Source: Eledone cirrhosa (lineage: Eukaryota). From it: a DNA stretch of 64,000 bases. Each line of letters starts with the position of its first letter. The first letter of the stretch is position 1. Positions 5,001 to 61,224 of this stretch are shown in pieces. The stretch is taken from the NCBI GenBank assembly GCA_964016885.1, contig OZ024743.1, positions 338,830,001 through 338,894,000 on the forward strand, given 5' to 3'. The notes beneath the pieces were generated by a model. That model ran no database searches, was not told the origin of the DNA, and saw only the letters and a list, made by a program, of their open reading frames with translations. A program made the translations under genes and the position numbers.

Positions 5001-7688
5001 CATCATCATCACCGTTTTACGTCCGTTCTTCCACGCTAGCATGGGTTAGACGGGTTGTCCTGTTGTGGGCAGTGTCTGGTCGGCTGGCCATGCCTTGCTC
5101 ATACAGGAACTGATCTGGCTTGATTTCTACAGCTGGATGCCCTTCCTAACACCAACCTCATTTACAGTGAGTGCTGGGTGCTTTTTCGTGGCGCCTACAC
5201 GTCCACTTTACAGTGTGGGCTGGGTGCTTTTTTTGCCGTGGGACCTCCACGACCACCTTGCGGTGGGGGGTGTGGGGGCATATTGTTTATATGCTTCAGC
5301 ATGTACCCATGGGAGGTCGGGTACCCTGTATTACTGCGTGACGCCAGAAGTCACGGTCGTGTGTCATTGACTTTGAGAGGTGTAGTTGGGTAAGGTCGGC
5401 TTTTATCACCTCATCCCAAGTCATCTTGGGTCTCCCCACTCCGCGGTTTCCATCAACTTCTAGTGCTCTGCACCTTTTTATGCAGCTGTCATCCTTCATA
5501 CGCATCACATGTCCATACCAGCGTAACCGCCTCTCCTGCACGCAGCATTTGATTCCTCTTATGCTCAGTCTCTCTCTCAATTCCTTTATGCTTTGTCGTT
5601 CACGTATATTACTGTTACACATCCATCGGAGCATGCAGGCTTCGTTTCTCTCTAATCTACGTAAGTCTTCCACCTTCAGCGCCCAGGTCTCACTACCATG
5701 CAACATCGCTGTTCGGATACACGCATCATACAGTCTGCCTTTCATTCTGAGGGAGAAGCCTTTTGCAGCTAGCAGTGGTAGTAGTTCCCTAAACTTCTTC
5801 CATCCCGTTCTTACCCTAGTTATTGTACTTTCTGAGCACCCACCTCCGTTGCTAATTCGGTCACCTAGGTAGCAGAAGCTGTCTACTGTTTCTACAGGGC
5901 CCTCCCAGAGATTGGTGGTACTTGTTTCCTGTGGCTGTTTGCTTGCTGTTTCAGCACAGCTGCTGCATGTGAATCCTACATTCTTAATTAAGCTTCCTGA
6001 GATCCCGCTACATCTCTTGTGTACCCATTGTTTGCATTTGGGGCAGAGAATGGAGTTCCTACCTACACCTTTCCTACATACTGAGCAAGGCCATTTCCCT
6101 GAGGGGATCTGGGTTCTGTTTTCTCGTCTACTTATAAGGACCTTAGTCTTTGTCATGTTGACTTTGAGGCCCTTTCTCTCTAGTCCCTGCTTCCAGGTTT
6201 GGAATTTATTCTCTAGTTCTACCATAGATTCAGCTATGAGTGCGAGGTCATCAGCATACAGGAGTTCCCATGGGCATCCGGTCTTAAACTCCTCCGTTAT
6301 TGCCTGCAGGACTATGATGAACAGGAGAGGGCTAAGAACAGAGCCCTGGTGGACCCCAACCTGTACGCTAAATTCCTCGCTATACTCATTGCCAATCCTA
6401 ACTTTGCTGACTGCTCCCCTATACATGGCTTGTACCGCTTTCACAAGCCATTCATCTACTCCTAGTTTTCTAAGAGCCCACCAGATTACTGCACGTGGAA
6501 CTCTGTCAAAGGCTTTCTCAAGGTCGACAAATGCCAAGTAGAGTGGCTTACTTTTAGCTAGGTACTTTTCCTGTAATTGCCTCACAAGGAAGAGGGCATC
6601 AGTGGTGCCTTTCCCTGGTACAAACCCAAATTGCATCTCGTCTATATTCACCCGGTCCCTAATCAGCTGTGCTATAACTCTTTCTGTTACTTTCATGACC
6701 TGGTCCATCAACTTTATACCTCTATAGTTTCCTCTATCTAGTGCATCGCCTTTACCTTTGTAGCAGTTGACAATGATGCTACTGCACCAATCTTTTGGTA
6801 TGGCCCCCTCTAGTATTACCTGGTTAACGATACGTGTGGTTATAGTGTGACCTACAGACCCAGATGCCTTCAGCATCTCGGCAGCTATACCCGTTGGACC
6901 GGTTGCCTTCCCTATCTTCATATCTCTGATTGCCTTACTTACTACGCTGCCGCTGACTTGTACTGCTGGTCCCTCTATAGGGTCTACGTGGGGTAGGGTC
7001 TCTTCTTCCCATGCATTCTCCTCATTTAGTAATCTATCATAATGACTCTTCCATGCATCTTTCTTCTCAGCACTTGTGAGGGCAAGCTCACCTTTATCAT
7101 TCCGGATACACTTCTCTCCAATGACATCACAACTATCTCTGACACACTGCCTCGCAATCTTGAATACCTCCTGTTTCTGGTCCTCACGTTGTAAAACATG
7201 CTTGAATTTTCTATCCTCTGCTTCCCTCCTAGCTAAGTATACTTGTCGCCTAGCTTCCCTCTTGGTCTCTATGTAATGTACCCTGCTCCCCCCGTTCTTC
7301 CATTCTTTCCATGCCTGTCTCTTGGCCTTGACTGCTTCATCTACCTTATTGTTCCACCACCAAGTCACTCGCCTCCTGCTTGAGGTCTTACTCCAGCCAC
7401 AAACCTCATCCGTCGCCTCTAGTAAGTTATTTTTTAGGAATTCCCAGTTCTCTTCTACGTTAAATGTCTCTATCTGTTCTTCTTTACTGTCGTAGGCGTT
7501 GAGTAAAATATCTTTAAATCTGTTACTGGTTGAGGGGACTTTCAGCTTCCAGATCTTTCTTCTCCAGGTTGGCCTCTGTTTCAGGGCTCGTCTAGTTCTG
7601 ACCGTGAGGTCGCTGACAACTAAGCTATGTTGGGATGTACATTCCTCACTAGGGAAGGCTTTTGTGTTTACGACCGTCCATCTGTCAC
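5001..7688 (-). mobile_element. RTE LINE subfamily B, 5'-truncated, RT frame intact (copy 1)
   Basis: ORF 5296..7368 with RT motifs (LLYADDL), a Cys/His insert, and a 3' UTR ending in a (GAT)n tail. Confidence 0.95.
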
Positions 7689-7881
7689 ATTATTTCAGTT
7701 AAATTTTAGTTTGGTTCAGTGTATGTAGACGTGTGTGTGTGTATGTATGTATGTATATATATATGTATGTATGTATATTTATATATATATATGTGGCAAC
7801 ATGAATAGACCTGTTATTTTTCTCTAAAAACATTTTTTCCGATTCCGTTCCGCCCGTCCTTTCAACCTTTCTAATTTCTCA

Positions 7882-15951: not shown

Positions 15952-18631
15952 TCATCATCATCATCATCACCGTTTTACGTCCGTTCTTCCACGCTAGCAT
16001 GGGTTAGACGGGTTGTCCTGTTGTGGGCAGTGTCTGGTCGGCTGGCCATGCCTTGCTCATACAGGAACTGATCTGGCTTGATTTCTACAGCTGGATGCCC
16101 TTCCTAACACCAACCTCATTTACAGTGAGTGCTGGGTGCTTTTTCGTGGCGCCTACACGTCCACTTTACAGTGTGGGCTGGGTGCTTTTTTTGCCGTGGG
16201 ACCTCCACGACCACCTTGCGGTGGGGGGTGTGGGGGCATATTGTTTATATGCTTCAGCATGTACCCATGGGAGGTCGGGTACCCTGTATTACTGCGTGAC
16301 GCCAGAAGTCACGGTCGTGTGTCATTGACTTTGAGAGGTGTAGTTGGGTAAGGTCGGCTTTTATCACCTCATCCCAAGTCATCTTGGGTCTCCCCACTCC
16401 GCGGTTTCCATCAACTTCTAGTGCTCTGCACCTTTTTATGCAGCTGTCATCCTTCATACGCATCACATGTCCATACCAGCGTAACCGCCTCTCCTGCACG
16501 CAGCATTTGATTCCTCTTATGCTCAGTCTCTCTCTCAATTCCTTTATGCTTTGTCGTTCACGTATATTACTGTTACACATCCATCGGAGCATGCAGGCTT
16601 CGTTTCTCTCTAATCTACGTAAGTCTTCCACCTTCAGCGCCCAGGTCTCACTACCATGCAACATCGCTGTTCGGATACACGCATCATACAGTCTGCCTTT
16701 CATTCTGAGGGAGAAGCCTTTTGCAGCTAGCAGTGGTAGTAGTTCCCTAAACTTCTTCCATCCCGTTCTTACCCTAGTTATTGTACTTTCTGAGCACCCA
16801 CCTCCGTTGCTAATTCGGTCACCTAGGTAGCAGAAGCTGTCTACTGTTTCTACAGGGCCCTCCCAGAGATTGGTGGTACTTGTTTCCTGTGGCTGTTTGC
16901 TTGCTGTTTCAGCACAGCTGCTGCATGTGAATCCTACATTCTTAATTAAGCTTCCTGAGATCCCGCTACATCTCTTGTGTACCCATTGTTTGCATTTGGG
17001 GCAGAGAATGGAGTTCCTACATACTGAGCAAGGCCATTTCCCTGAGGGGATCTGGGTTCTGTTTTCTCGTCTACTTATAAGGACCTTAGTCTTTGTCATG
17101 TTGACTTTGAGGCCCTTTCTCTCTAGTCCCTGCTTCCAGGTTTGGAATTTATTCTCTAGTTCTACCATAGATTCAGCTATGAGTGCGAGGTCATCAGCAT
17201 ACAGGAGTTCCCATGGGCATCCGGTCTTAAACTCCTCCGTTATTGCCTGCAGGACTATGATGAACAGGAGAGGGCTAAGAACAGAGCCCTGGTGGACCCC
17301 AACCTGTACGCTAAATTCCTCGCTATACTCATTGCCAATCCTAACTTTGCTGACTGCTCCCCTATACATGGCTTGTACCGCTTTCACAAGCCATTCATCT
17401 ACTCCTAGTTTTCTAAGAGCCCACCAGATTACTGCACGTGGAACTCTGTCAAAGGCTTTCTCAAGGTCGACAAATGCCAAGTAGAGTGGCTTACTTTTAG
17501 CTAGGTACTTTTCCTGTAATTGCCTCACAAGGAAGAGGGCATCAGTGGTGCCTTTCCCTGGTACAAACCCAAATTGCATCTCGTCTATATTCACCCGGTC
17601 CCTAATCAGCTGTGCTATAACTCTTTCTGTTACTTTCATGACCTGGTCCATCAACTTTATACCTCTATAGTTTCCTCTATCTAGTGCATCGCCTTTACCT
17701 TTGTAGCAGTTGACAATGATGCTACTGCACCAATCTTTTGGTATGGCCCCCTCTAGTATTACCTGGTTAACGATACGTGTGGTTATAGTGTGACCTACAG
17801 ACCCAGATGCCTTCAGCATCTCGGCAGCTATACCCGATGGACCGGTTGCCTTCCCTATCTTCATATCTCTGATTGCCTTACTTACTACGCTGCCGCTGAC
17901 TTGTACTGCTGGTCCCTCTATAGGGTCTACGTGGGGTAGGGTCTCTTCTTCCCATGCATTCTCCTCATTTAGTAATCTATCATAATGACTCTTCCATGCA
18001 TCTTTCTTCTCAGCACTTGTGAGGGCAAGCTCACCTTTATCATTCCGGATACACTTCTCTCCAATGACATCACAACTATCTCTGACACACTGCCTCGCAA
18101 TCTTGAATACCTCCTGTTTCTGGTCCTCACGTTGTAAAACATGCTTGAATTTTCTATCCTCTGCTTCCCTCCTAGCTAAGTATACTTGTCGCCTAGCTTC
18201 CCTCTTGGTCTCTATGTAATGTACCCTGCTCCCCCCGTTCTTCCATTCTTTCCATGCCTGTCTCTTGGCCTTGACTGCTTCATCTACCTTATTGTTCCAC
18301 CACCAAGTCACTCTCCTCCTGCTTGAGGTCTTACTCCAGCCACAAACCTCATCCGTCGCCTCTAGTAAGTTATTTTTTAGGAATTCCCAGTTCTCTTCTA
18401 CGTTAAATGTCTCTATCTGTTCTTCTTTACTGTCGTAGGCGTTGAGTAAAATATCTTTAAATCTGTTACTGGTTGAGGGGACTTTCAGCTTCCAGATCTT
18501 TCTTCTCCAGGTTGGCCTCTGTTTCAGGGCTCGTCTAGTTCTGACCGTGAGGTCGCTGACAACTAAGCTATGTTGGGATGTACATTCCTCACTAGGGAAG
18601 GCTTTTGTGTTTACGACCGTCCATCTGTCAC
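15952..18631 (-). mobile_element. RTE LINE subfamily B, 5'-truncated (copy 2)
   Basis: ORF 16254..18311 almost identical to copy 1, with an in-frame 15-nt deletion (KGVGR) near 17015. Confidence 0.95.
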
Positions 18632-18844
18632 ATTATTTCAGTTAAATTTTAGTTTGGTTCAGTGTATGTAGACGTGTGTGTGTGTATGTATGTATGTATA
18701 TATGTATGTATGTATGTATATATATATGTATGTATGTATATTTATATATATATATGTGGCAACATGAATAGACCTGTTATTTTTCTCTAAAAACATTTTT
18801 TCCGATTCCGTTCCGCCTGTCCTTTCAACCTTTCTAATTTCTCA

Positions 18845-44759: not shown

Positions 44760-47700
44760 ATGGCAACGACAGGTGATCAAGATATAGTAGCTGAGGATAT
44801 TAGCCTCCTCGCCACTGAACAGTCGACGGCGACTCCAACAGCTGTAACCGAACTGGTGGTTATACCTCAACAACAGTTGTCAACCGCCTCGTCCACTGAT
44901 GTCCTGGCAGCCTCGGCTACTGTCATCTCTACAGGCACACTTGAACAACAACATGAGCAGAGCTCGGACAAAATTAGCGAAGATTTACTGGTGAGTAAGG
45001 CTCTTATTGAAATTGGTGCCAACGAAGCTTGTCGAGATTTACTCAATGCCGGTGACGAATTCGAAGATTTCTCTGCTCTGTCTTCAGCTATAGCGGCTGT
45101 CTGTAAGCTGACAAATGCTGTCTTCACCATTCATGACTGCCAAACAATTGCCAAAGCTAATAGATCGCGATGTGTCAAAGTCGAACCATTAGACGAGAAA
45201 TTCAAATACAAATATGTCAAATATGTTTGTAAACAGTTTGGTTATTCAAGACGACGGAGTGTGCCAGGCATACGACCCAACCAACGGTATTTCGACCCAC
45301 TTCTTTACAATCTCTTCTTCTTTTACTAATTTCAGTGTCATATCCAACCCAGCACTTTATTTTATCAATATATGTTTATAGAACGAAATCTAAAACCGTT
45401 GTAAACATAAATGCAAACGCACGTACACACAATAGTAGTAGTAGTAGTAGTAGCAGGGTGATTTAAGAACTGGAAAGGGGGACGGGAAAAGCTTCATTAT
45501 GAATATGACAAAAGTATTTAAGTGAAAGATCAACGCCGAGAGCAGAGGGCAAAACATCAGCATTCCTGAGTGATGGCAGTGAAGTTGTTACAACATCACG
45601 ATTCTGATGATGGCTGTATGGATAATGCGAAAAATTGCTGCTTGGCGCTGCCTGAAGGAGTGATGCCATTAGAAGTTGCTGAAGTCGTTGAGATCTCCAG
45701 TCGACAGAAGAGGTTATGACCTGTTGTCCATGCAAACTTGTGTGTTGATGACCTAGTTTTTATAGCTGAATTTGTGGAAAAGCTAGAGAAGGAATTTCTG
45801 GAGTGTTAACAGAACCTAGAATAAAAAACGGTGGAGACTTCCGCTCTTCTTAGCCCCCGGAACCACATCCCCACTCACTGTTGTCGGAACGGAGTTGGTC
45901 TTCCGCAAGTTCGAGCCCCACGAAGTGGAGTGGTTGTTCCAGCGCGTTTCCCTCGCCGTCCACCGGGGCAATGTATTTTCCATTCTGTCAGCCGGATGCG
46001 GAGGTTGAGGATATTAGTTTGGACATCATTTTCTCTCTATTTATTTAAAAATCTCTTCAAAGGCAGTGCTCACATTCTATTACTGAACCAAAAGTGCCAA
46101 GAGTAAACTTAGCAAAGACCAAAGTTTTAGTAAGTTGGAAGAAAGATAATGTGTTCAATATATAGAGAATTAGTTAGGAACTCTATACGAATTACACTGT
46201 AAAATAACATACAAATACACACACACACACAACTGGGTGCATTTTACCAGCACTACCACTTACAGTGTGTACTGGCACTATCACATAATAATTGTTTCTA
46301 CTTTTGGCACAAGGCCAGCAACTACCCAGTGTATTACTGGTACTTTATTTTATCGACCCCGTAAGGATGAAAGGCAAAGTTAACCTTGGCGCAATTTTGG
46401 TGAAAAGTGAAAGTAGATTATATCGATCCCAGTAATTGACTGGTACTTTATTTTATTGACCTTGGAAGGATGAAAGGCAAAGTTAACCACAGCAGGATTC
46501 GAACTCAGAATGTAAAGAGCCAGAACAAAGATCTCAAGTCATTTTTTCCAACACTCTAATGACTCTGCCAATCTACTGTCTTTATAGTTCTTATTCTTGA
46601 GAGTGTTGTGGGGGCAGAGTCCTCAAACACTCCTTCCGCTGGGTCCTGTCAGAAGCAACCGTCCCCAACTGATACGGCTGGATTCCCAAGTGAGACCAGC
46701 CAAGCTCACGGATGTTATCCAACCATCTTCCTTGGGGTCTACCCCTGGGTCTCTTTTTGAGTTGGTTTTGCCTGTGAAATCTGTCCAGCGATTCTTTCCT
46801 GAGATATTCTAACCACATGTCCATAGTATCAGAGCTGTGATCTCTCAATTCAGAGAAGTAATGGCTCTACCTGAAGCAACTCTCTGATCTCTGAGCTACA
46901 CACAGTCAAGTAGTCAAGTAACGTTACTCCAAAGACATTTTGGAGGAACCCCATTTCAGCCGTTTGTATTTGCGATTATATTCTTTCTGTCAGTATAGTT
47001 CTAATAATAATAATCTGTTTTCTCTTTGACTTGTAGAACCTACAAAACTGGCTGTCCTGCACTGATTGCTGCGTCTGTGGATCGAGAGAAACAGAGGATG
47101 GTGATACGTACCATCAACTTGAACCACTCACACCAGATGTTAGGCCACATGTACCCTGAGAACCGGCGGCAGTCATTGACACCCAACGTCCTCACTGAGA
47201 CCTATCGGCTCATCGATATTGGCATGAAAACTAAGAACATCCGCGAGTACATCTGTAATGTGACCGGCAAACAGCTGACCACAAGGGACATTAATAATAT
47301 GAAAGCCAAACGAAAAAAAGAACTCACACCTCCTCTAAATCACAACACCAGCAACATTGTCAACAACAACATTCATAATAATAATAATAATAATAACAAC
47401 AGCATAGTCAGTCGTAATGACGGACACCACACAAAGAAAAGGAAACGAGGGACACATGATATAGTAAATTATTATTTTTTGTGGAATTTCATTTTTACTC
47501 CTGTGTGTACCCAGTTTACAAAGACACTGTATCCCTGCATGTATCTGGTTTAGAATAGGTATACTGTATCCCTGTCTGTATTTGGTTTAGAATAGGTACA
47601 CTGTATCCCTGTCTGTATTTGGTTTAGAATAGGTACACTGTATCCCTGTCTGTATCTGATTTAGAATAGGTACACTGTATCCCTGTCTGTATCTGGTTTA

Positions 47701-50700
47701 GAATAGGTACACTGTATCCCTGTCTGTATTTGGTTTAGAATAGGTACACTGTATCCCTGACTGTATTTGGTTTAGAATAGGTACACTGTATCCCTGTCTG
47801 TATCTGGTTTAGAATAGGTACACTGTATCCCTGTCTGAATCAAGTTTAGAATAGGTACACTGTATCCCTGCATGTATCTCGTTTAGAATAGGTACACTGT
47901 ATCCCAGTGTATCTGGTTTAGAATAGGTACACTGTATCTCTGTGTGTATTTGGTTGAGAATAGGTACACTGTATCCCTGTGTATCTGGTTTAGTATAGGT
48001 ACACCATATCCTTGAGTCTGTCTGGTTTAGAATAGGTACACCATATCCCTGTGTGTAGCTAGTTTAGAATTAGTACACTATATCCCTGTTTCTATCAGGT
48101 ATACCTACTATATAGAAGTCAAACTCATTGGCTTATACATACATCTATAAGACTAGAGTTTGATTTTAGGGATATTTGGCTGGTATTTCTATCAAGTCTA
48201 ACAACCATGTAGAGGTCTTCTTCATTGACTTATATATACATAAGACAGAAAGGTGACATTTGAGGAAAATTTGGTAGCTATTTCTATAAAGTTTAACTAA
48301 CATGTAGATGTCTCCTTTGTTGTCTCATACATACATAGACAATAGGGTGTGATTTGAGAGGGATTAGGCTTCTATTTCTAGTATAATAACCATATAGAGG
48401 ACTCTCTTATTGTCTCATTCCAACAGTGTTTCTCTTTCCTCTCTCTCCCCTCACTTCAAATATTCACTGATTCCCTGACATAACATTATTTTGCAGGAAG
48501 TAACATCTCCAATATCTAGCCATGTGTTTGATATTTCCAAAGGTCTACCAGCAATTGGTGTTCCTGTTTTACTATTTATTCAGATAGAGAAACGATCCTG
48601 GAAACTGCTTCAGAAAAGGTAAGAAACTTTCTTGAGTCTTTTGTTGAACTTTTCTGTTGAAACTACTCATTGCTTTGTTTAGTTTTAAGTTTGTACTGGT
48701 TCATACCGGTTTGGTTTAGTTCGAACTTGTCCGTACTGGTCTGATTTTGTGTGGACAATTTAATACTGGTCTTGACTGGTCCATACTGGTTTGGTTTAAT
48801 TTGACAGGTCATACTGGTCTGGACTGGTCTATACATGCTTGGACTAGTTCATACAGGTTTAGTTTGTCTGATTCATACTTATCTGAACCAGTTCATACTC
48901 GTTTTGTTTAGATTCATCCATACTGAACTGATTTTGTCTTGACTGGTTCATACTGATCTGGTTTAGTTTGGGCTCAAATTGCTGGCCTTGTGCCTAAATT
49001 AAAAACCATTATTATAATAATAATTTACTGATCCGTGGATCAGACCAAGGAAACTATATTCCCATTGGTCTTTTCCACTGCTGATACTATCTGACATATG
49101 GAGGTGAGATTGCACTGAAAACACACTGAGCCTATTCAGATACCACAAAGTACCCTAACTAACTTTTTTTTAATCCTGCCGATCCACTGCTTCTAGATTT
49201 TATTGATCCCTAAAGAATGAAAGGTAAAGTTGACCTTGGTTTATATTTGAACATAGAGTGCAAGAACAAATACCAAAAGCTCTAATAACTCTGCCAATTA
49301 TTATTATTAATAATTTCAGACAGAATGCAAACTATTCGCCTTTTGCCTAAATTAAAATTCTTATCATTATAAGGATGAGTAGAGCATCGGACAATAGGAT
49401 GTATAGTATTTGTTTCAGCCATTTACATTCTGAGTTCAAATCTTGCTGAGGTTAGCTTTGCCTTTCATCCTTGCGGGGTTGATTTAATTGACTGCCTCCC
49501 CTTCCTTCAAAATTGTTGGCCTTGTGGCAAAAGTAGAAACAATTCATCATCATCATTTTACATCTGCTTTTCCCTGCTTGCAAGTGTGCGACGGCAACTG
49601 ATTTTGGCTTATTGATTTTTATTCATTATTATTCCATTGTTGCCTCTCTTTTATTTTCATTAAACCTGTTTCTACGCACACACATATACACACTCGCACT
49701 CAATGTTTTGTTCTATGCTGTCCTTAATGTTTCCTTCATGTAAATCCTTTGTGGTTAATAATGATGAAATCATCATTATTATTGTTAGGAAGAAGGGTGG
49801 TGAATTGGCAGAATCGGTAGAGCGTTGTACAAAGGATTAGCTGTATTTGTTCGGCTCATTACATTCTGAGTTCAAAGCCTGCTGAGGTTAGCTTTGCATT
49901 TCATCCTTTCAGGGTCGATAAAATAAAGTACCAGTAATGCACTGGGGTCAATTTAATCGACTTTCCTCTCCCTGAAAATTGTTGGCTTTGTGCTCAAATC
50001 GGAAACCGTGGATTGGCAGTATTGGTAGCGGGTTGAACGCCATGCTTTGACTCGTAGAGTTACGACACTTGCCATTCTGAGTTCAAATCCCGCCAAGATT
50101 AACTTTGCCTTTCATCCTTACGGGGTCGATAAAATAAAGTACCAGTAATGTACTGGGTAATTGCTGGCCTTGTGCCAAAAGTAGAAACAATTATTATTGT
50201 TAAGGGCAGTGGACTTGCAGTATTGGTAGAGCATCGGACGCCATGCTTTGCAGCATAGTTACGCCCCTTTACGGTCTGAGTTCAAATCCCGCTGAGGTTA
50301 ACTTTGCCTTTCATCCTTACGAGGTCGATAAAATAAAGCACCAATAATGCACTGGGATAATTGCTGGCCTTGTGCTAAAAGTAGAAACTGTTATTATTGT
50401 TAGGAAGACAATGGATTTTCAGAGTCGTTAAAGTATTGTAAAAGCTGCCTTATGCATAAATTATATCTTATTAATTATTTCTGTATTTCCTCTGTATTTC
50501 TCACAGTGCCAGCAGCATTGATGGCCACGTTACATTCCTTGCTGGACAGAAAATTGTTAAGACAACTGTGTATAAGCTACTCTTTGATACAGAATCTTAT
50601 TTCAAAATCACTGACCAGTCAGCTTTTTATCCTTACATTGAGGTAAGGAAATCTTTGTTTATTGTCTGTGTGTGTGTGTGTGTGTGTGGCTGTCTCTGTG

Positions 50701-51143
50701 TCTGTGTGTGTGTGTATCTGAGTCTCAGTGTGTTTGAGTTTGTATGTGTGTGTGAGTATATCTGTGTTATATGTGTGTGTGTGTTTTTGTGTGATTATTG
50801 AAGTAATGGTGTGGGGATTGGTTCATTGGTAGGGGTAGTGGTTACAGTGGTGTAATACTGTAGTGTAGATAGTAGAACAGTGGTGTAGTAAGGGTAGTGG
50901 TGAAATAATTAGGTGAGGTTTACCTATTACTAATAAAGTCTATTGATTAATAAAATATATTTATTTACTTTGCAGCTGGTATTCCAGGTAATGGACCCAA
51001 CATTGATACATCATATTCCCATTCAGATCAGCCCTCACAGCTATTCCTGCCACAGGGAACTCCTCCAGCCACACCTCGGTGTAACCTCATCTTTTTCCCA
51101 GATGTCACCATCACCCATATCTCCCGTGCCACTGATATCGTGA
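44760..51143 (+). CDS. MULE-derived zinc DNA-binding domain (ZSWIM3_N/FAR1-like) fused to a degenerate HIU hydrolase/transthyretin domain, 459 aa (exons 44760-45286, 47037-47463, 48497-48618, 50507-50642, 50976-51143)
   Basis: All introns GT-AG and phase-consistent (1380 nt total). N-part: GDEFEDFSAL...YKYVKYVCKQFG...RPNQR-TYKTGCPA...NHSH...YPENRR...TGKQLTTRDINN. C-part: SPISSHVFDISKGLPAIGVPV...DGH...YKLLFDTESYF...FYPYIE-LVFQV...HHIPIQISPHSYS. Confidence 0.8.
47525..48090. repeat. 37-bp minisatellite, about 15 copies, in intron 2 of the fusion gene
   Basis: Unit ggtacactgtatccctgtctgtatttggtttagaata. Confidence 0.92.
48497..51060 (+). CDS. 5-hydroxyisourate hydrolase/transthyretin-like domain (three exons)
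   Basis: TTR/HIUase signature segments HVFD.SKGLPA.GV.V, YKLLFDT.SYF, FYPYIE.VF, HIPI.ISP.SYS; phase-2 and phase-0 introns at the canonical TTR/HIUase positions. Confidence 0.9.
49795..50390 (+). mobile_element. Three tandem Meta-domain-like SINEs (family also at ~3825-4450, 20385-20500, 46290-46575, 52890-53105)
   Basis: ggattggcag..ggtagagc head, GAGTTCAAATCC B box, GCCTTTCATCCTT.CGGGGTCGATAAAATAAAGTACCAG core. Confidence 0.75.
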
Positions 51144-51735
51144 GAATGTCACAACTGTTACACCTCCAGATACAACACAGATGGTCCTCACTCTTAACTT
51201 AACTGTTCCCCAGATGTCACCATCACCAACATCTGCTCTGTTGTTGCTCTCATGAGTGTATTGCTACTGTTACACCTCCAGATACAACACAGTCCTCACT
51301 TTCACTCAAATGTTCCTGCAGATGTCACATCTCCTGCATTGCTGATACTATGAGAATGTCACAATTGTTACACTGTCAGATACAACACAGTCCTCACTTT
51401 CACTCAAGTGTTCTTGCAGATGTCACATCTCCTGCATTGCTGATATTATAAGAATGTCACAATTTTTACACTTCCAGATACAACACAGATATTCCTCACT
51501 CACTCATCTGTTCCCCAGATGTCACCATCACCAACATCTGCTGCATTGTTACCACTGTTATACCCCCAGATACAATACAGTCCTCACTCCCACTCAGCTA
51601 TTACCACATCACTTGCGTCTCTGATATAACGAGAGTGTCGCTATTGTTAAACCTCCAGATACATCACAATCCTCACTTTCACTCGAGTGTTTTCCAGATG
51701 TCACATCACTTGCGTCTCTGATATTATTACACCTG
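51095..51735. repeat. Degenerate ~110-120 bp tandem repeat overlapping the end of the fusion CDS
   Basis: cagatgtcac...gagaatgtcacaa.tgttacacctccagatacaacacagtcctcact repeated about 6 times. Confidence 0.85.
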
Positions 51736-56239: not shown

Positions 56240-59200
56240 TTAGATTAATCGGAAATCACAGACAAGAGAAAGATGGTCAGATGGATAAGAATGTGAAGGT
56301 AGACGGTTCTGTCCGATATCTTTGTCTGTGGGTAGGTCTAGCAATGAAATAACTTCCAGAGAGCCCTGACTGCACCAGATATAGTCAATTGTCCGACATA
56401 TTTCCACTTGTCCTGTTGGTGTGTCTCTCACTTTCCATGTTGTGTATGATGGCTCGCTGCCTTCTTCAGACAACTTTGTGTATGCACTAAACAGCTTAAG
56501 ATCATCATTTATGTAAGACTGGTAGACCTTCTCCATCGGGTCAGCATTGAAGTCTCCGCAGATGATAACTGGCCACGTTAGAGCTTTCTCCCGAACGTAA
56601 TCCAAGATGAACATACCTTCTTCGTGCCGTAAATTGTCGAAGCCGAGTTTTGCTTTCAAATGGGTGACAATGACTGAGAATTTATCTTTGCCTTCTTCAG
56701 CACCAGAGTTAATCTTAAACAAGCAGTGTATAGCTACTTGGTTTGTCAATTGTCCATTCATTGTTTTCAGACCAAGTTTCTGGTAATCCAACAGTTTTAA
56801 GCAATCTTTTCGATAAAAGAGAGCACAGCCATCAGGTCCTATACAGTTGCTGTAATATAGACAAGGGGAATTTGGTTTGGGCTGGAAAATACCAGAATAA
56901 CCAACAGATGTCAGCTGTGAAGAGAGGAAGTCATAGTGATCAACTTCTTGTAAACAAATAAGGTCTGGATTGTTCTTTATAATTCCTTCTAAGATGCGAA
57001 ATTTGCGTGTGTCCCATGAGAGGGCACTCAGAGGACACAGGATAAAATTGTCTGTTCCTGTTGACAATGCTGTAATAGATAGAAATCATTTCAATATAGA
57101 AATAAGAGAATTATAGTGAACACAGGCAATTCTATCTTTTTCACTTTTCTATCTATCTACGAAATGTCAATCTACCTGTCTATCTGCCTATCTACCTATC
57201 TACCTGTCTATCTATCTGTCTACCTACCTATCTACCTACATACCTATCTATCTGCCTACCTATCTATCTACCTACATACCTATCTATCTGTCTACCGACC
57301 TACATACCTATCTATCTGCCTACCTACCTATCTGCCTGTCTATCTGCCTACCTACCTACCTATCTATCTGCCTACATACCTATCTATCTGCCTATCTACC
57401 TATCTATCTGTCTACCTACCTATCTATCTGCCTACATACCTATCTATCTGCCTACCTACCTATCTATCTGTCTACCTACCTATCTACCTACCTATCTATC
57501 TGCCTACCTACCTATCTACCTACCTATCTACCTACCTATCTATCTGTCTACCTATCCCTCAATTTATATATATGTGTGTGTGTATTATAAAGAGTCGGGG
57601 CCATACTCTACTATCCTAAGTATTGAGTTCTCTGTTGAGTAATGGTCTAACTAGTTTTAAACTGGTTCTGTCTTGATATATGTGTGTGTGTGTCTGTCTA
57701 TAAAGCTATCTACACACGCTGAGGCTACGCCATCCCCAGGTATTCCTGACCGGTGTGGCTGTCGTTTGTGAGACAAGCTCTTCCAAAACTCGTCTCACTA
57801 ACAGAGCTGCAGTCCTAGGTCATGCGAAGACTGAAAATGGGTGCCTGGCACCTCGAGTGCCTTCATGCACTCACAGCCCTCTACCAAGCGGAAACGGCAA
57901 TCAGCAGAAACTCCACTTCGACATTCTATAGGGGATTAGTGGAGGATAAGTGCGACAACGTTCTTGGGGAAACACCAGGCATCGAGGAGGATGAACTGAC
58001 CAATCTGTTCGTGAGGACTTTCTGTCCAGGGCCTCTGGATAACTTCCAGAGGTCTCTGGCCTGGCAGTGCTACCAAGGAGCTCTACCAGTTCGATACAAA
58101 ATCTACAGGCACGGACGCCCTGGCAGAGATTCTGCCAAAAGGACCTGTCCAACATGCGAGCAAGACATCGAAACCATTCTGCACGCAATTGTTCAGTGCC
58201 CACGGGTAACCAACCTGTGAAATTATTTTGAACAGTTACTGTCACGTGTGGAACGCATCCAGTTGACAGCCAAGTCCATCGTGAGGTTTACCACGCCGCC
58301 TTCATTTAAGAACGAAGGAGAGGCGGTTTCCTCTGTCTGGTGGCTATGGCGACAGAGGTATTATGGTGGACGAGGTTAGAAGGACTGAGAACAAATACCT
58401 TTCTGTCCGGACAACAACTTATCCCCTTCTTTAAGTACCACTTCAGAAGGAAGGTGAGAGTGGAGAGAGAGGTGCTACACCCCAGTAAATTCGCTGAAAG
58501 GTGGGTGAATGTGGCGAAAATGGCCCGAGTGAATGGGCCTTCTCTGTATATAAACCTGTAGGTTGAGGAAGATAAACAGAGGGAAGACAGGAACACCTAC
58601 AAAATGTGTTCCTGGTGTTGAGGGTAGTTCTATCCACGGGGTGTAAAACAACCCTGCAGTAACGTTCTCCCCTATTGGGGATTTCAATTGTTATTTTATT
58701 ATATATAGTTTATTGTTATTTATTAATGTTAAAGTTATATGATTTTTATGTAAAACCCCCACCGTCACATCTTGTAATGTCCCATTTTTGTACGGCCCTG
58801 TGGCAAATAAAGAAAGATATCTATAAAGCTATCTGTCTACCTATCTCTATACCCTCATACACATGCTTTATCTATAAATCTCACACAGAAGGCTTTGCCA
58901 TGCCTAATCCAACTCTATGCATTCTCAGTTCAAATCAGGCCTCATCCTTGCCAAAAGTTGTAACCAAAAGGAAGTATCAGCAATGGAACAAAATATCAAT
59001 GAAAACATACTTTCCTTGGTTTAATCTGATGATTAGCTCATTTAAGAAACTTTGAATAATGTCCCAACCACTTAATGAGATCATCACCATCATCATCATT
59101 TAACATCTGTCTTCCCTGCTAGCAAGGGTTGGATAGGTCTTCACAGACCAAGTCAGTATTCAAGTGGAGCTGTTGACTTCTCAGATGTGCCAGGGACCTA

Positions 59201-59702
59201 CATCTTGTTTACATACATTCTGGTGCTCTACCAAGAGCATTTTATCATGACCCCAGCACTAGGGAGGTTGTCATGTCTTTGACACAGCTGAAGAGTACTT
59301 CTGACTTTGTTTGGTACAGCTGAAGAGCAGAAGATTCAACACATGAAACAGATGGAAGCAACACTTACATACATACTTGTGCTCTAGCAAGAGCATTTTA
59401 TCATAACCCCAGCACTAAGGAGTTTGTCATGTCTTTGACACAGCTGAAGAGTACTTCTGACCCTTTGTTTGGTACAGTTGAAGAGCAACACTTACTAATA
59501 CAGAAAGTTTATAGAGAAATTTACCATAAGCTAGGACATTCCATTGTAGCAGCCGTATTTTGGTAGCATTTTTATTCCTTTCTGTGGCAATTAGTGGCAA
59601 CTCGGTGAACTCTCTATTCATAAAATCAGGAAGACCCTTCTTCTTAGATTCATCTTCGATTTTCTTCAGTAGTTCTTTACATTTTTCATTGGCGTAAGGC
59701 AT
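56240..59702 (-). CDS. NOCT: Nocturnin (CCR4-like EEP NADP(H) phosphatase); exons 59702-59525 and 57069-56240, 335 aa, further upstream exons possible
   Basis: QWNVLAY-A-LS, DLICLQEVDH, PKPNSPCLY, GPDGCALFY, THLKA, ICGDFNA, EPSYTTWKVR, TIDYIW, RLPSHSYPSDHLSL; phase-1 GT-AG intron. Confidence 0.93.
57150..57556. repeat. (CTAT/CTAC)n compound microsatellite
   Basis: Direct inspection. Confidence 0.95.
57715..58815 (+). mobile_element. Tx1/L1-clade LINE 3' fragment in the nocturnin intron
   Basis: zf-RVT-like WQCYQGALPVR...TCPTCEQDIETILHAIVQCP; AATAAA near the 3' end. Confidence 0.75.
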
Positions 59703-61224
59703 GTTTGGGACCTGTGGATGGTAACATGAATACAGAAAAGAAATGGAAGCGTGAACACATATATACATACGTCTAACCCATACCAGCATTGGAAATAGAC
59801 ATAATGGGAAATAGGCACAAAGCCAACAATTTTGGGAGTAAGGGAAAAGTTGATTACATTGACTCCAGTATGTGACTGGTACCATATTTTCTTAATCCCA
59901 GAAGTATGAAAAGCAAAGTTGACCTCAGCAGGATATTAACTCCAAACTTAGATAGTAAAGAGGGGAAGAAAAGGTAAAGATGAGGAAATAGGAAGGAGGG
60001 GGGGGGGGGCATGAAGGGGAGAAATAGAAGGAATAGTGGAAAAGAGGTGGCAGAAGAGGTAAAGAGGGGGACAGATGAAGAAAGAGGGGGTGGAGAAACG
60101 AGGTAAATGGGGGAGAGGGAAAGAGAGAGAAGAGGGGGAAGAAGGGGTATGTTGGGATTTTATTAACCCTTTAGCATTTACATTATATATAGTATTATAT
60201 TTTCACAGTAAAAACTTTATCTCATATAATTATCTCACATAATATTGAATCTGAGATTCTGATATTATTTATTTTGAGAACAATACCTTAACATCAGTAT
60301 GAGTGGCCTGTTATGGCCAGTTTTAACAGAAAGAGGTGACAGAATTCTGGCCGGATATGGCCGATTTAAATGCTAAAGAGTTAATGACTAACTGTTCATA
60401 GAGACACTGCTTGTAAACCTACTAAAATCAATTTGTCCTGTGGTGTTCGAGACATTTAGAGTAGCTGGGCCGCAAACAATGAAGTTCTTGTCATCTTTGG
60501 CAGCTTACCTTACCAAGGTATCATGTGATGCCAGTGAAGGTACTTGTTGTTCCAGAGCATTAGCCTCATTATCACATCCAGCCAGTGTGTTAGATTGCCT
60601 CAGAAAGTATTAGTGACAGGCTCCGATATCCCTTGTGGTATGTGACTGATTGACAGACACACTTAGTGTTGAATCTATATTACTATGTAAAATATTTACG
60701 TAATGAAGTAATAAAGGTATATGTGTTGAATTTTAACAGCTATGACATTTGTGTTTGTAATTTCAAACTATTAAGAAATAACAGAAAAGAAAATTCCCAC
60801 CGAAGAAAATTGCGAGGCTGGGAAAATCTTTGTGAAGTTATAGTTATGTTCCAAATACCAGCTTAACCCTTTAGCATTTAAACCAGTCATAACCGGCCAG
60901 AATTTTCTCACCTCTTTCTGTTCAAACCGGCTAAAACTGGGTGCTCATACTTCTGTTAAGATATTGTTCTCAAAATAGATAATATCAAAATCGCATAGAT
61001 TCAATATTATGTGAGATAATTATGTCAGATAAAGGCTTTACCATGAAAATACAATAGTAAATATTGAGTAATGTAAATACTAAAGGGTTAATAATAAAAT
61101 AATTATATTACCATAACCTTTCAACTTCTTGATTATTTTCGAAATTATTTGTAAATTAGAAGCACGGTCTTTTATCAGAAATATTATAAGGAAAGAATTA
61201 TAAAGTTAGTTCCATTGATACATT

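Follow-up and report, generated by a model that had tools for sequence, protein, structure and literature searches.

The stretch of the Eledone cirrhosa genome considered here, 64,000 nucleotides (nt) of contig OZ024743.1 (assembly GCA_964016885.1, positions 338,830,001 to 338,894,000), which we refer to as the window, carries on its forward strand a five-exon gene that combines a DNA-binding region of Mutator-transposase type with a fold of the HIUase/transthyretin (TTR) family. The joined exons form a single open frame of 459 amino acids (aa) closed by a stop codon, and the four introns are all of GT-AG type, with phases 2, 0, 2 and 0 and acceptor tracts of 59-77% pyrimidine. A first-pass annotation had proposed this five-exon frame, and its coordinates, lengths and splice sites all proved correct. 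The parts of the gene are:

44760..45286, forward strand: exon 1, coding part (527 nt), with the start codon, a poorly conserved low-complexity N-terminus (aa 1-72), a conserved helix and the first two thirds of ZSWIM3_N, including zinc ligand C157
45287..47036, forward strand: intron 1, phase 2, splitting the zinc module
47037..47463, forward strand: exon 2, whole (427 nt)
47037..47133, forward strand: start of exon 2, remainder of the WRKY-GCM1-type zinc module (C182, H206, H208)
47134..47319, forward strand: middle of exon 2, three-helix helix-turn-helix unit with KAKRKK at its end
47320..47463, forward strand: end of exon 2, Asn-rich linker and basic cluster KKRKR (nt 47434-47448), a candidate nuclear localisation signal
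47464..48496, forward strand: intron 2, phase 0, the fusion junction, containing a 37-nt tandem repeat
48497..48618, forward strand: exon 3 (122 nt), first third of the HIUase/TTR fold, with the His12 equivalent retained as H327
50507..50642, forward strand: exon 4 (136 nt), middle of the fold, with Asp50 retained and Arg52 replaced by His366
50976..51143, forward strand: exon 5 (168 nt), end of the fold, with His103 retained as H417 and L107Q, Y116H, G118E and S119L, then a 26-residue Ser/Pro-rich tail and the stop codon

Against Pfam, exon 1 matched ZSWIM3_N above the cut-off (E 5e-7), exon 2 matched DUF5575_N alone (E 0.08), and exons 3, 4 and 5 matched Transthyretin (PF00576; E 1e-3, 2e-5 and 0.02), covering in order positions 1-34, 41-82 and 84-108 of the profile. 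The C-C-HxH zinc module of Mutator type that had been recognised earlier is present, with ligands C157, C182, H206 and H208, and the two basic motifs likened to nuclear localisation signals lie where they had been placed, KAKRKK at residues 265-270 and KKRKR at 309-313 of the product. Nine MULE transposases used as tblastn queries matched exons 1-2 alone within the window, with no match to their catalytic domain under E 0.5, which agrees with the earlier statement that the DDE domain is missing. It had also been considered that the HIUase exons might use a first exon of their own; no phase-0 ATG-to-donor mini-exon was found in intron 2, and the frame lacks a Met anywhere between residues 264 and 410.

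Among 1.84 billion representatives, the closest relatives of the front half were Mutator transposases and their derivatives, and the C, C, H, H zinc ligands were invariant in 27/27 aligned rows. Pfam gave no match to an RNase H-like DDE domain in the Octopus bimaculoides (P0005) or cuttlefish (P0010) orthologue. Related multicopy sequences were found on three metagenome contigs, two of which (L012 and L013) have an intron at the codon and phase of intron 1 and the third of which is split at the same place; moreover, two records (P0037 and P0038) start at that position and another (P0018) ends there. The occurrence of an intron at the same codon and phase in related Mutator-like sequences suggests that exons 1-2 arrived with the transposon's own intron, and intron 1 was thus probably inherited from the transposon.

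The AlphaFold model of P0010 is confident over residues 80-260 and has a pLDDT (predicted local distance difference test) mostly below 60 over the TTR half, because the alignment had depth for the front half alone. The best structural match of the front half was Aft2 on DNA (root-mean-square deviation 2.5, 75 aligned residues), with a Z of 8.0 that lies within the 7-8 typical of the best matches of unrelated models; Aft2 also ranked first in Foldseek (E 0.013), followed by WRKY domains. Residues at about 197-266 resemble three-helix folds of the homeodomain, Myb and transposase helix-turn-helix types (Z 5-7). These middling scores are in line with the sequence evidence and with published work linking WRKY-GCM1 domains to MULE transposases and Aft2 (PMC1702500; this and the other papers are cited here for the parts of their text that were available), and in the model the front half consists of an Aft2/WRKY-type zinc fold followed by a helix-turn-helix. 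The first-pass annotation was right about the zinc module and had overlooked the second putative DNA-binding unit, the helix-turn-helix of exon 2. The ESM Atlas returned no usable match for P0010, which indicates neither novelty nor absence. ZSWIM3_N is also recorded in fusion with nucleoplasmin, KRAB (two records) and BTB (P0017, P0019, P0045 and P0088; a BTB-ZSWIM3_N record is crayfish XP_069960572.1), partners that would fit a need for a multimerising or repressing domain.

Compared with reference sequences, the TTR domain scored 2e-19 against the HIUase-TTR ancestor, 7e-16 against zebrafish HIUase 2h1x and 4e-9 or weaker against TTRs, and the best BLAST matches of the back half include oyster HIUases; this half is nearer to HIUase than to TTR. 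Of the ten conserved HIUase active-site residues (PMC13751858, section 7), five are kept (His12, Asp50, His103, Pro105 and Arg117) and five are replaced (R52H, L107Q, Y116H, G118E and S119L). The five replacements are shared by 6/6 coleoid sequences examined; among 118 other domains, R52 is found in 112, L107 in 101, Y116 in 115 and G118 in 114. Residues invariant in the six coleoids include H12, H52, H103, Q107, H111, C115, H116, R117, E118 and L119. The C-terminal YRGS has become HREL followed by the 26-residue tail, so the TTR/HIUase domain earlier called complete is so as a fold and not as an enzyme. HIUase catalysis is unlikely in the coleoid domain, because half of the active-site residues are replaced, including Tyr116, a change that alone abolishes about 99% of HIUase activity (PMC13751858, section 7). 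The route to TTR given in the same section is Y116T plus I16A; the coleoid domain keeps Ile16 and has His in place of Tyr116, so the changes that open the TTR channel are absent. The idea that the fold senses a purine- or hormone-like molecule fares badly, since Arg52 and Tyr116, which contact the substrate, are lost and the TTR route was not followed. The loss of the targeting-signal first exon that had been proposed holds: the pattern of the peroxisomal targeting signal PTS2 occurs upstream of the domain in 0/6 coleoid sequences, and a PTS2-like motif in 0/17 long or fused forms, as against 4/5 stand-alone HIUases examined.

A four-copy model of the O. bimaculoides TTR domain reached a tetramer score of 0.92, with 0.00 for the best of three controls, and makes the tetramer suggested earlier plausible, although the score may reflect memory of solved HIUase/TTR structures and its calibration is on two copies rather than four (mark reached by 21/30 solved pairs and 0/23 single chains from microbes, and by 17/29 and 0/30 from eukaryotes). 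Contacts in the model agree to at least 98%, pLDDT is at least 89, and Q107 and H116-L119 sit in the modelled dimer-dimer interface.

Gene models with both domains exist at NCBI for O. bimaculoides (XP_014779890.1), Argonauta (GAB1601753.1) and Sepia (CAE1234312.1, named uraH), and the whole O. bimaculoides orthologue matches Transthyretin at 6e-24 and ZSWIM3_N at 1e-12 in Pfam. Cuttlefish run assemblies are better evidence than such models, since predictors can repeat one error; even if the runs were not RNA, a retrocopy would need a spliced message. In a cluster of seven such records, two are full-length frames that lack introns (422 aa on 2264 nt and 398 aa on 1860 nt), one opens within intron 1 and has exons 2-5 joined, and four end at the end of exon 1. 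The frames that cross the junction, intronless or spliced, are P0010, P0012 and P0006, and a further cuttlefish record (P0013) reads into intron 2. Because intronless frames occur along with records that read into the introns, introns 1 and 2 both exist in the cuttlefish lineage and are removed there: in that lineage splicing takes place at all four introns and joins transposase and HIUase exons. Sequencing run X4 contains 0.25 of the words of the stretch, close to the share taken up by exons, a figure that is no evidence of expression in Eledone. With the NCBI models, these frames bear out, through the ortholog search, the earlier claim of a real spliced fusion, kept across octopods and cuttlefish.

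Identity between the window product and cuttlefish is 101/113 in the zinc module, 54/62 in the helix-turn-helix and 97/115 in the TTR fold, against 12/48 in the linker, 22/72 at the N-terminus and 8/26 in the tail, that is, 84-89% for the domains versus 25-31% for the linker and ends; the basic cluster is kept in 6/6 coleoid sequences although the linker around it is only 25% identical. Protein identities also place the source of the window among the octopods. This protein-level difference between domains and linker argues that the coleoid orthologues are under purifying selection. Octopods and cuttlefish separated some 270 million years ago. In the TTR tree the coleoid stem measures 2.09 changes per site and the branches within the clade 0-0.16; the stem measures 1.5 in a larger tree of 121 rows, made by a quick method only, after removal of 5 near-duplicate or partial rows. 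These branch lengths suggest fast change of the TTR domain after fusion followed by strong constraint, a burst and then stasis. The metagenome scan yielded no cephalopod locus.

Oyster and Owenia HIUases match this locus alone in the 3.0-Gb genome, apart from one further match at E 8.6 (weak searches), and exon 4 has a single genomic match; the gene looks like urah itself, co-opted without a spare copy. Neither uricase nor OHCU decarboxylase was found in the genome by a type of search that also missed the fusion gene's own exons, so that absence is not shown; xanthine dehydrogenase and guanine deaminase likewise went unseen, and allantoicase matched a single short stretch that is duplicated in part. 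We accordingly rejected loss of the uricolytic pathway as an established result, this type of search being too weak. As to the donor, a related transposase matched only the fusion locus and one decayed stretch in a stricter genome search, which sets a floor, and no close parent element was found. A genome search with PF21599 gave three further places, of which the top two share about 27% identity with the cuttlefish orthologue. Two loci on C3, L006 and L007 (about 219.18 and 219.20 Mb), are frames of 378 aa with the same score, separated by 14 kb, in which the ZSWIM3_N module has no intron; L006 shows no obvious catalytic domain and could be a further domesticated, or a deleted, Mutator derivative.

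The same two domains occur in a single gene model of the annelid Capitella teleta (ELU04385.1, about 30% identity), for which the protein search found no close relative. Its pocket is ruined differently from that of coleoids (H12L, D50Q, R52Q, L107H). Capitella ranks 126th among matches of the window TTR domain, coleoids rank 14th or lower for the Capitella DNA-binding region, and for neither domain are the Capitella and coleoid versions reciprocal best matches. The approximately unbiased (AU) test rejects a coleoid-Capitella clade on the DNA-binding region (p 0.022, 39 rows, 5 near-duplicate or partial rows having been removed beforehand), in an analysis run after the free tree was known and with two sister rows that cover exon 2 only; it does not reject this clade on the TTR domain (p 0.335, 40 hand-picked rows). 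An independent, convergent origin of the Capitella fusion is favoured over a single shared one by these comparisons.

A wider scan of 28 longer records matching TTR or ZSWIM3_N yielded HIUase joined to a Brinker DNA-binding domain, to HTH_psq and to an integrase zinc domain (one record each), and five more records with an N-terminal C-x2-C...H-x4-H finger upstream of HIUase (weak Pfam match), a finger that we take to derive from hAT transposases. For one finger record, 28/30 ESM Atlas matches were Transthyretin-only clusters; the top three, all arthropod, have 51-81 members of 264-538 aa. Several long HIUase forms have an intact active site and others are decaying. Since five cadherin-HIUase records in the scan indicate that mis-joined models probably occur, single fusion records are leads only. 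Long N-terminal additions are present in the HIUase records P0039, P0040, P0042, P0061, P0087, P0101, P0129, P0131, P0133 and P0134, several of them with putative Brinker, Psq, integrase zinc or C2H2-like finger modules, and the short PTS2-bearing form P0108 groups with long finger forms in the TTR tree.

The reading that we consider most likely, with a probability of roughly 0.6, is that the fusion is a domesticated nuclear factor, a dead-enzyme tetramer that presents four transposon-derived DNA-binding heads. The coleoid urah (HIUase) gene would have captured two 5' exons of a Mutator-like transposase, which would have replaced its peroxisomal-targeting first exon. The product would enter the nucleus through its basic clusters, and the zinc module and helix-turn-helix would bind DNA, initially probably at the terminal repeats of the parent element. 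The catalytically dead HIUase fold would retain its homotetramer and hold four DNA-binding heads on flexible linkers, which could raise avidity for repeated sites or bridge distant ones, a multimerising role that BTB domains fill in other factors. The outcome would be a sequence-specific transcription or chromatin-organising factor. Several points weigh against this reading. DNA binding and nuclear location are predicted from fold resemblance and basic motifs, Foldseek gave no front-half match at E 0.001 or better, and both the Aft2 score and the tetramer score carry the limits given above. In two O. vulgaris models exon 2 is joined to exon 3, but exons 4-5 are missing; unspliced or partly spliced forms outnumber full forms among the cuttlefish records; and the junction was read in cuttlefish, not in Eledone itself. 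Finally, a pure scaffold would not obviously require invariant new pocket residues.

Compatible with the domesticated factor, as an addition to it, would be gating by a ligand or metal, which we hold to be rather unlikely. The old active site would have been rebuilt, with His12, His52, His103 and His116 from two subunits lining each pocket together with Gln107 and Cys115, and a metal ion or small anion would tune tetramer assembly and DNA binding. E. coli HIUase has a zinc site at these histidines, which our literature search did not confirm. The identity of ten pocket-region residues in 6/6 coleoids, where most of 118 other domains have R52, L107, Y116 and G118, speaks for such gating, as does the closest fold, Aft2, an iron-regulated factor of transposon origin (PMC1702500). 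However, the whole domain is about 84% conserved, so that pocket invariance is unexceptional, the differently decayed Capitella pocket has no histidine set in common with it, and a purine or thyroxine version is at odds with the loss of R52 and Y116 and the retention of I16. A broader proposal, doubtful when all its parts are taken jointly, is that the HIUase tetramer has been captured repeatedly by animal DNA-binding domains, its catalysis decaying afterwards, and that in coleoids the histidine pocket gates the transposon-derived factor. Its instances would be the Mutator zinc module, taken up independently in coleoids and in Capitella, the C2H2-like finger in insects, and Brinker, Psq and integrase zinc domains in single records; fusion would come first, often with the active site intact, giving a DNA-tethered enzyme or purine sensor, and the coleoid end point, under metal or metabolite control, would be a second escape of HIUase from metabolism, parallel to transthyretin.

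The transposase-derived bipartite DNA-binding region without a catalytic domain would also suit a factor that binds the terminal repeats of its parent Mutator element and blocks or represses it, for which KRAB-transposase fusions that bind cognate elements offer a precedent (bioRxiv 10.1101/2020.05.07.082677). Yet neither the stricter transposase search, itself a floor, nor the PF21599 search found a close parent element, and an arms race predicts fast change where the module is 89% identical between octopods and cuttlefish; we regard transposon silencing as improbable. Slightly more improbable still is a chromatin-tethered hydrolase with residual HIUase or new activity. His12, Asp50, His103 and Arg117 are retained, this is the only HIUase homologue found in the genome, and some arthropod long forms keep 10/10 active-site residues (P0039, P0042, P0129 and P0134); against this stand the five replacements, Tyr116 included (PMC13751858), and a free C-terminus lengthened by 26 residues. 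The least credible explanation, to which we give very little weight, is an artefact, either two adjacent genes merged by predictors or a neutral read-through. Mis-joined HIUase models such as the cadherin-HIUase records probably exist in databases, and the splicing evidence comes from cuttlefish; but intronless cuttlefish frames cross the junction, no in-frame Met between residues 264 and 410 and no alternative first exon in intron 2 was found from which the HIUase exons could start, and exon 2, which closes with a Met codon in other octopods, has Ile at that position here and Thr in some cuttlefish records.

The neighbourhood has several further features. On the minus strand, open frames at 56240-57085 and 59427-59891 lie tail to tail with the fusion gene; from their translation we take them to belong to a nocturnin-type (EEP family) gene, presumably a useful synteny marker. 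Also on the minus strand, a 17-codon stretch at 58945-58995 resembles the C-terminal end of a canonical HIUase (E 0.006 with our own profile; 0/40 shuffles score as high). It lies between two stops, no partner exons were found, and it may be either a chance resemblance or a relic of a lost second HIUase copy. Several long reverse-transcriptase frames of LINE (long interspersed nuclear element) type occupy window positions 242-25870; those at 5296-7689 and 16254-18632 are nearly identical, which suggests recent activity. The 3' end of exon 5 continues into a 98-nt tandem repeat region (51144-51720, array called at 51268-51488) whose units resemble the last codons of the fusion frame, and the poorly conserved C-terminal tail may be derived from this repeat.

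That transcription factors can arise by transposase capture is established (10.1101/2020.05.07.082677), and tetrapod host-transposase fusions (KRAB-transposase, SETMAR) likewise consist of transposase DNA-binding exons spliced to a host gene, are conserved and are probable transcription factors. In contrast to these, the partner here is a metabolic enzyme fold that has lost key catalytic residues rather than a regulatory domain of the KRAB kind, the transposon-derived part stands at the N-terminus, and the lineage is that of coleoid molluscs. The zinc fold with C-C-HxH ligands is shared by Aft1/Aft2, Rbf1, FAR1/FHY3 and ZSWIM3, all of the Mutator superfamily (PMC1702500; PMC10027918), but unlike in Mutator-derived WRKY-GCM1 factors the HIUase fold takes the place of the RNase H-like/MULE or SWIM domain. 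From Urah/HIUase, with which it shares fold, sequence and the five retained active-site residues, the coleoid protein differs in its five replacements, the lack of YRGS and PTS2, and the fused DNA-binding region. Transthyretin is likewise an HIUase descendant without catalysis, and keeps the tetramer; however, it arose by duplication, is secreted and had its channel opened by Y116T and I16A (PMC13751858), whereas here no second copy was found, and the product, which appears to be nuclear, retains I16 and has a pocket lined with histidines. In Urad-Urah fusions (plant TTL, allantoin synthase) the HIUase tetramer is a C-terminal core with an N-terminal domain, a layout that the coleoid protein would share, but they unite two active enzymes of one pathway.

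The claim that this architecture was undescribed stands for the literature searched and not for databases, which already hold it under automatic names for three other coleoid species, a fourth in shortened form, and Capitella. No paper on a ZSWIM3_N-HIUase fusion was found in a literature search that left most subscription journals outside. In its available text, PMC13751858 describes Urad-Urah fusions only and does not mention molluscs or cephalopods; that of PMC10027918 lists one Octopus FHY3-type factor and lacks the word transthyretin, and five of its supplement files gave no match to the fusion accession or two motifs (long cells were shortened, so that a miss is possible). Transthyretin and ZSWIM3 are absent from the main text of PMC12062965, whose table of 12,803 fusion proteins lay outside the search, and PMC4324301, as available, describes metazoan HIUases as PTS2-bearing without mention of invertebrates, insects or molluscs.

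In most known transposase captures a DNA-binding domain is coupled to a regulatory one, while here the partner is the fold of a housekeeping enzyme, which appears to have lost catalysis and then frozen in sequence across octopods and cuttlefish. A 'uraH' label on a cephalopod gene probably does not denote an active enzyme. Should the arthropod and annelid fusions prove real, the HIUase fold would have a widespread nuclear role, undescribed in the literature searched. In coleoids, the fusion is a candidate lineage-specific regulator and would provide a second natural experiment on the HIUase fold changing its job.

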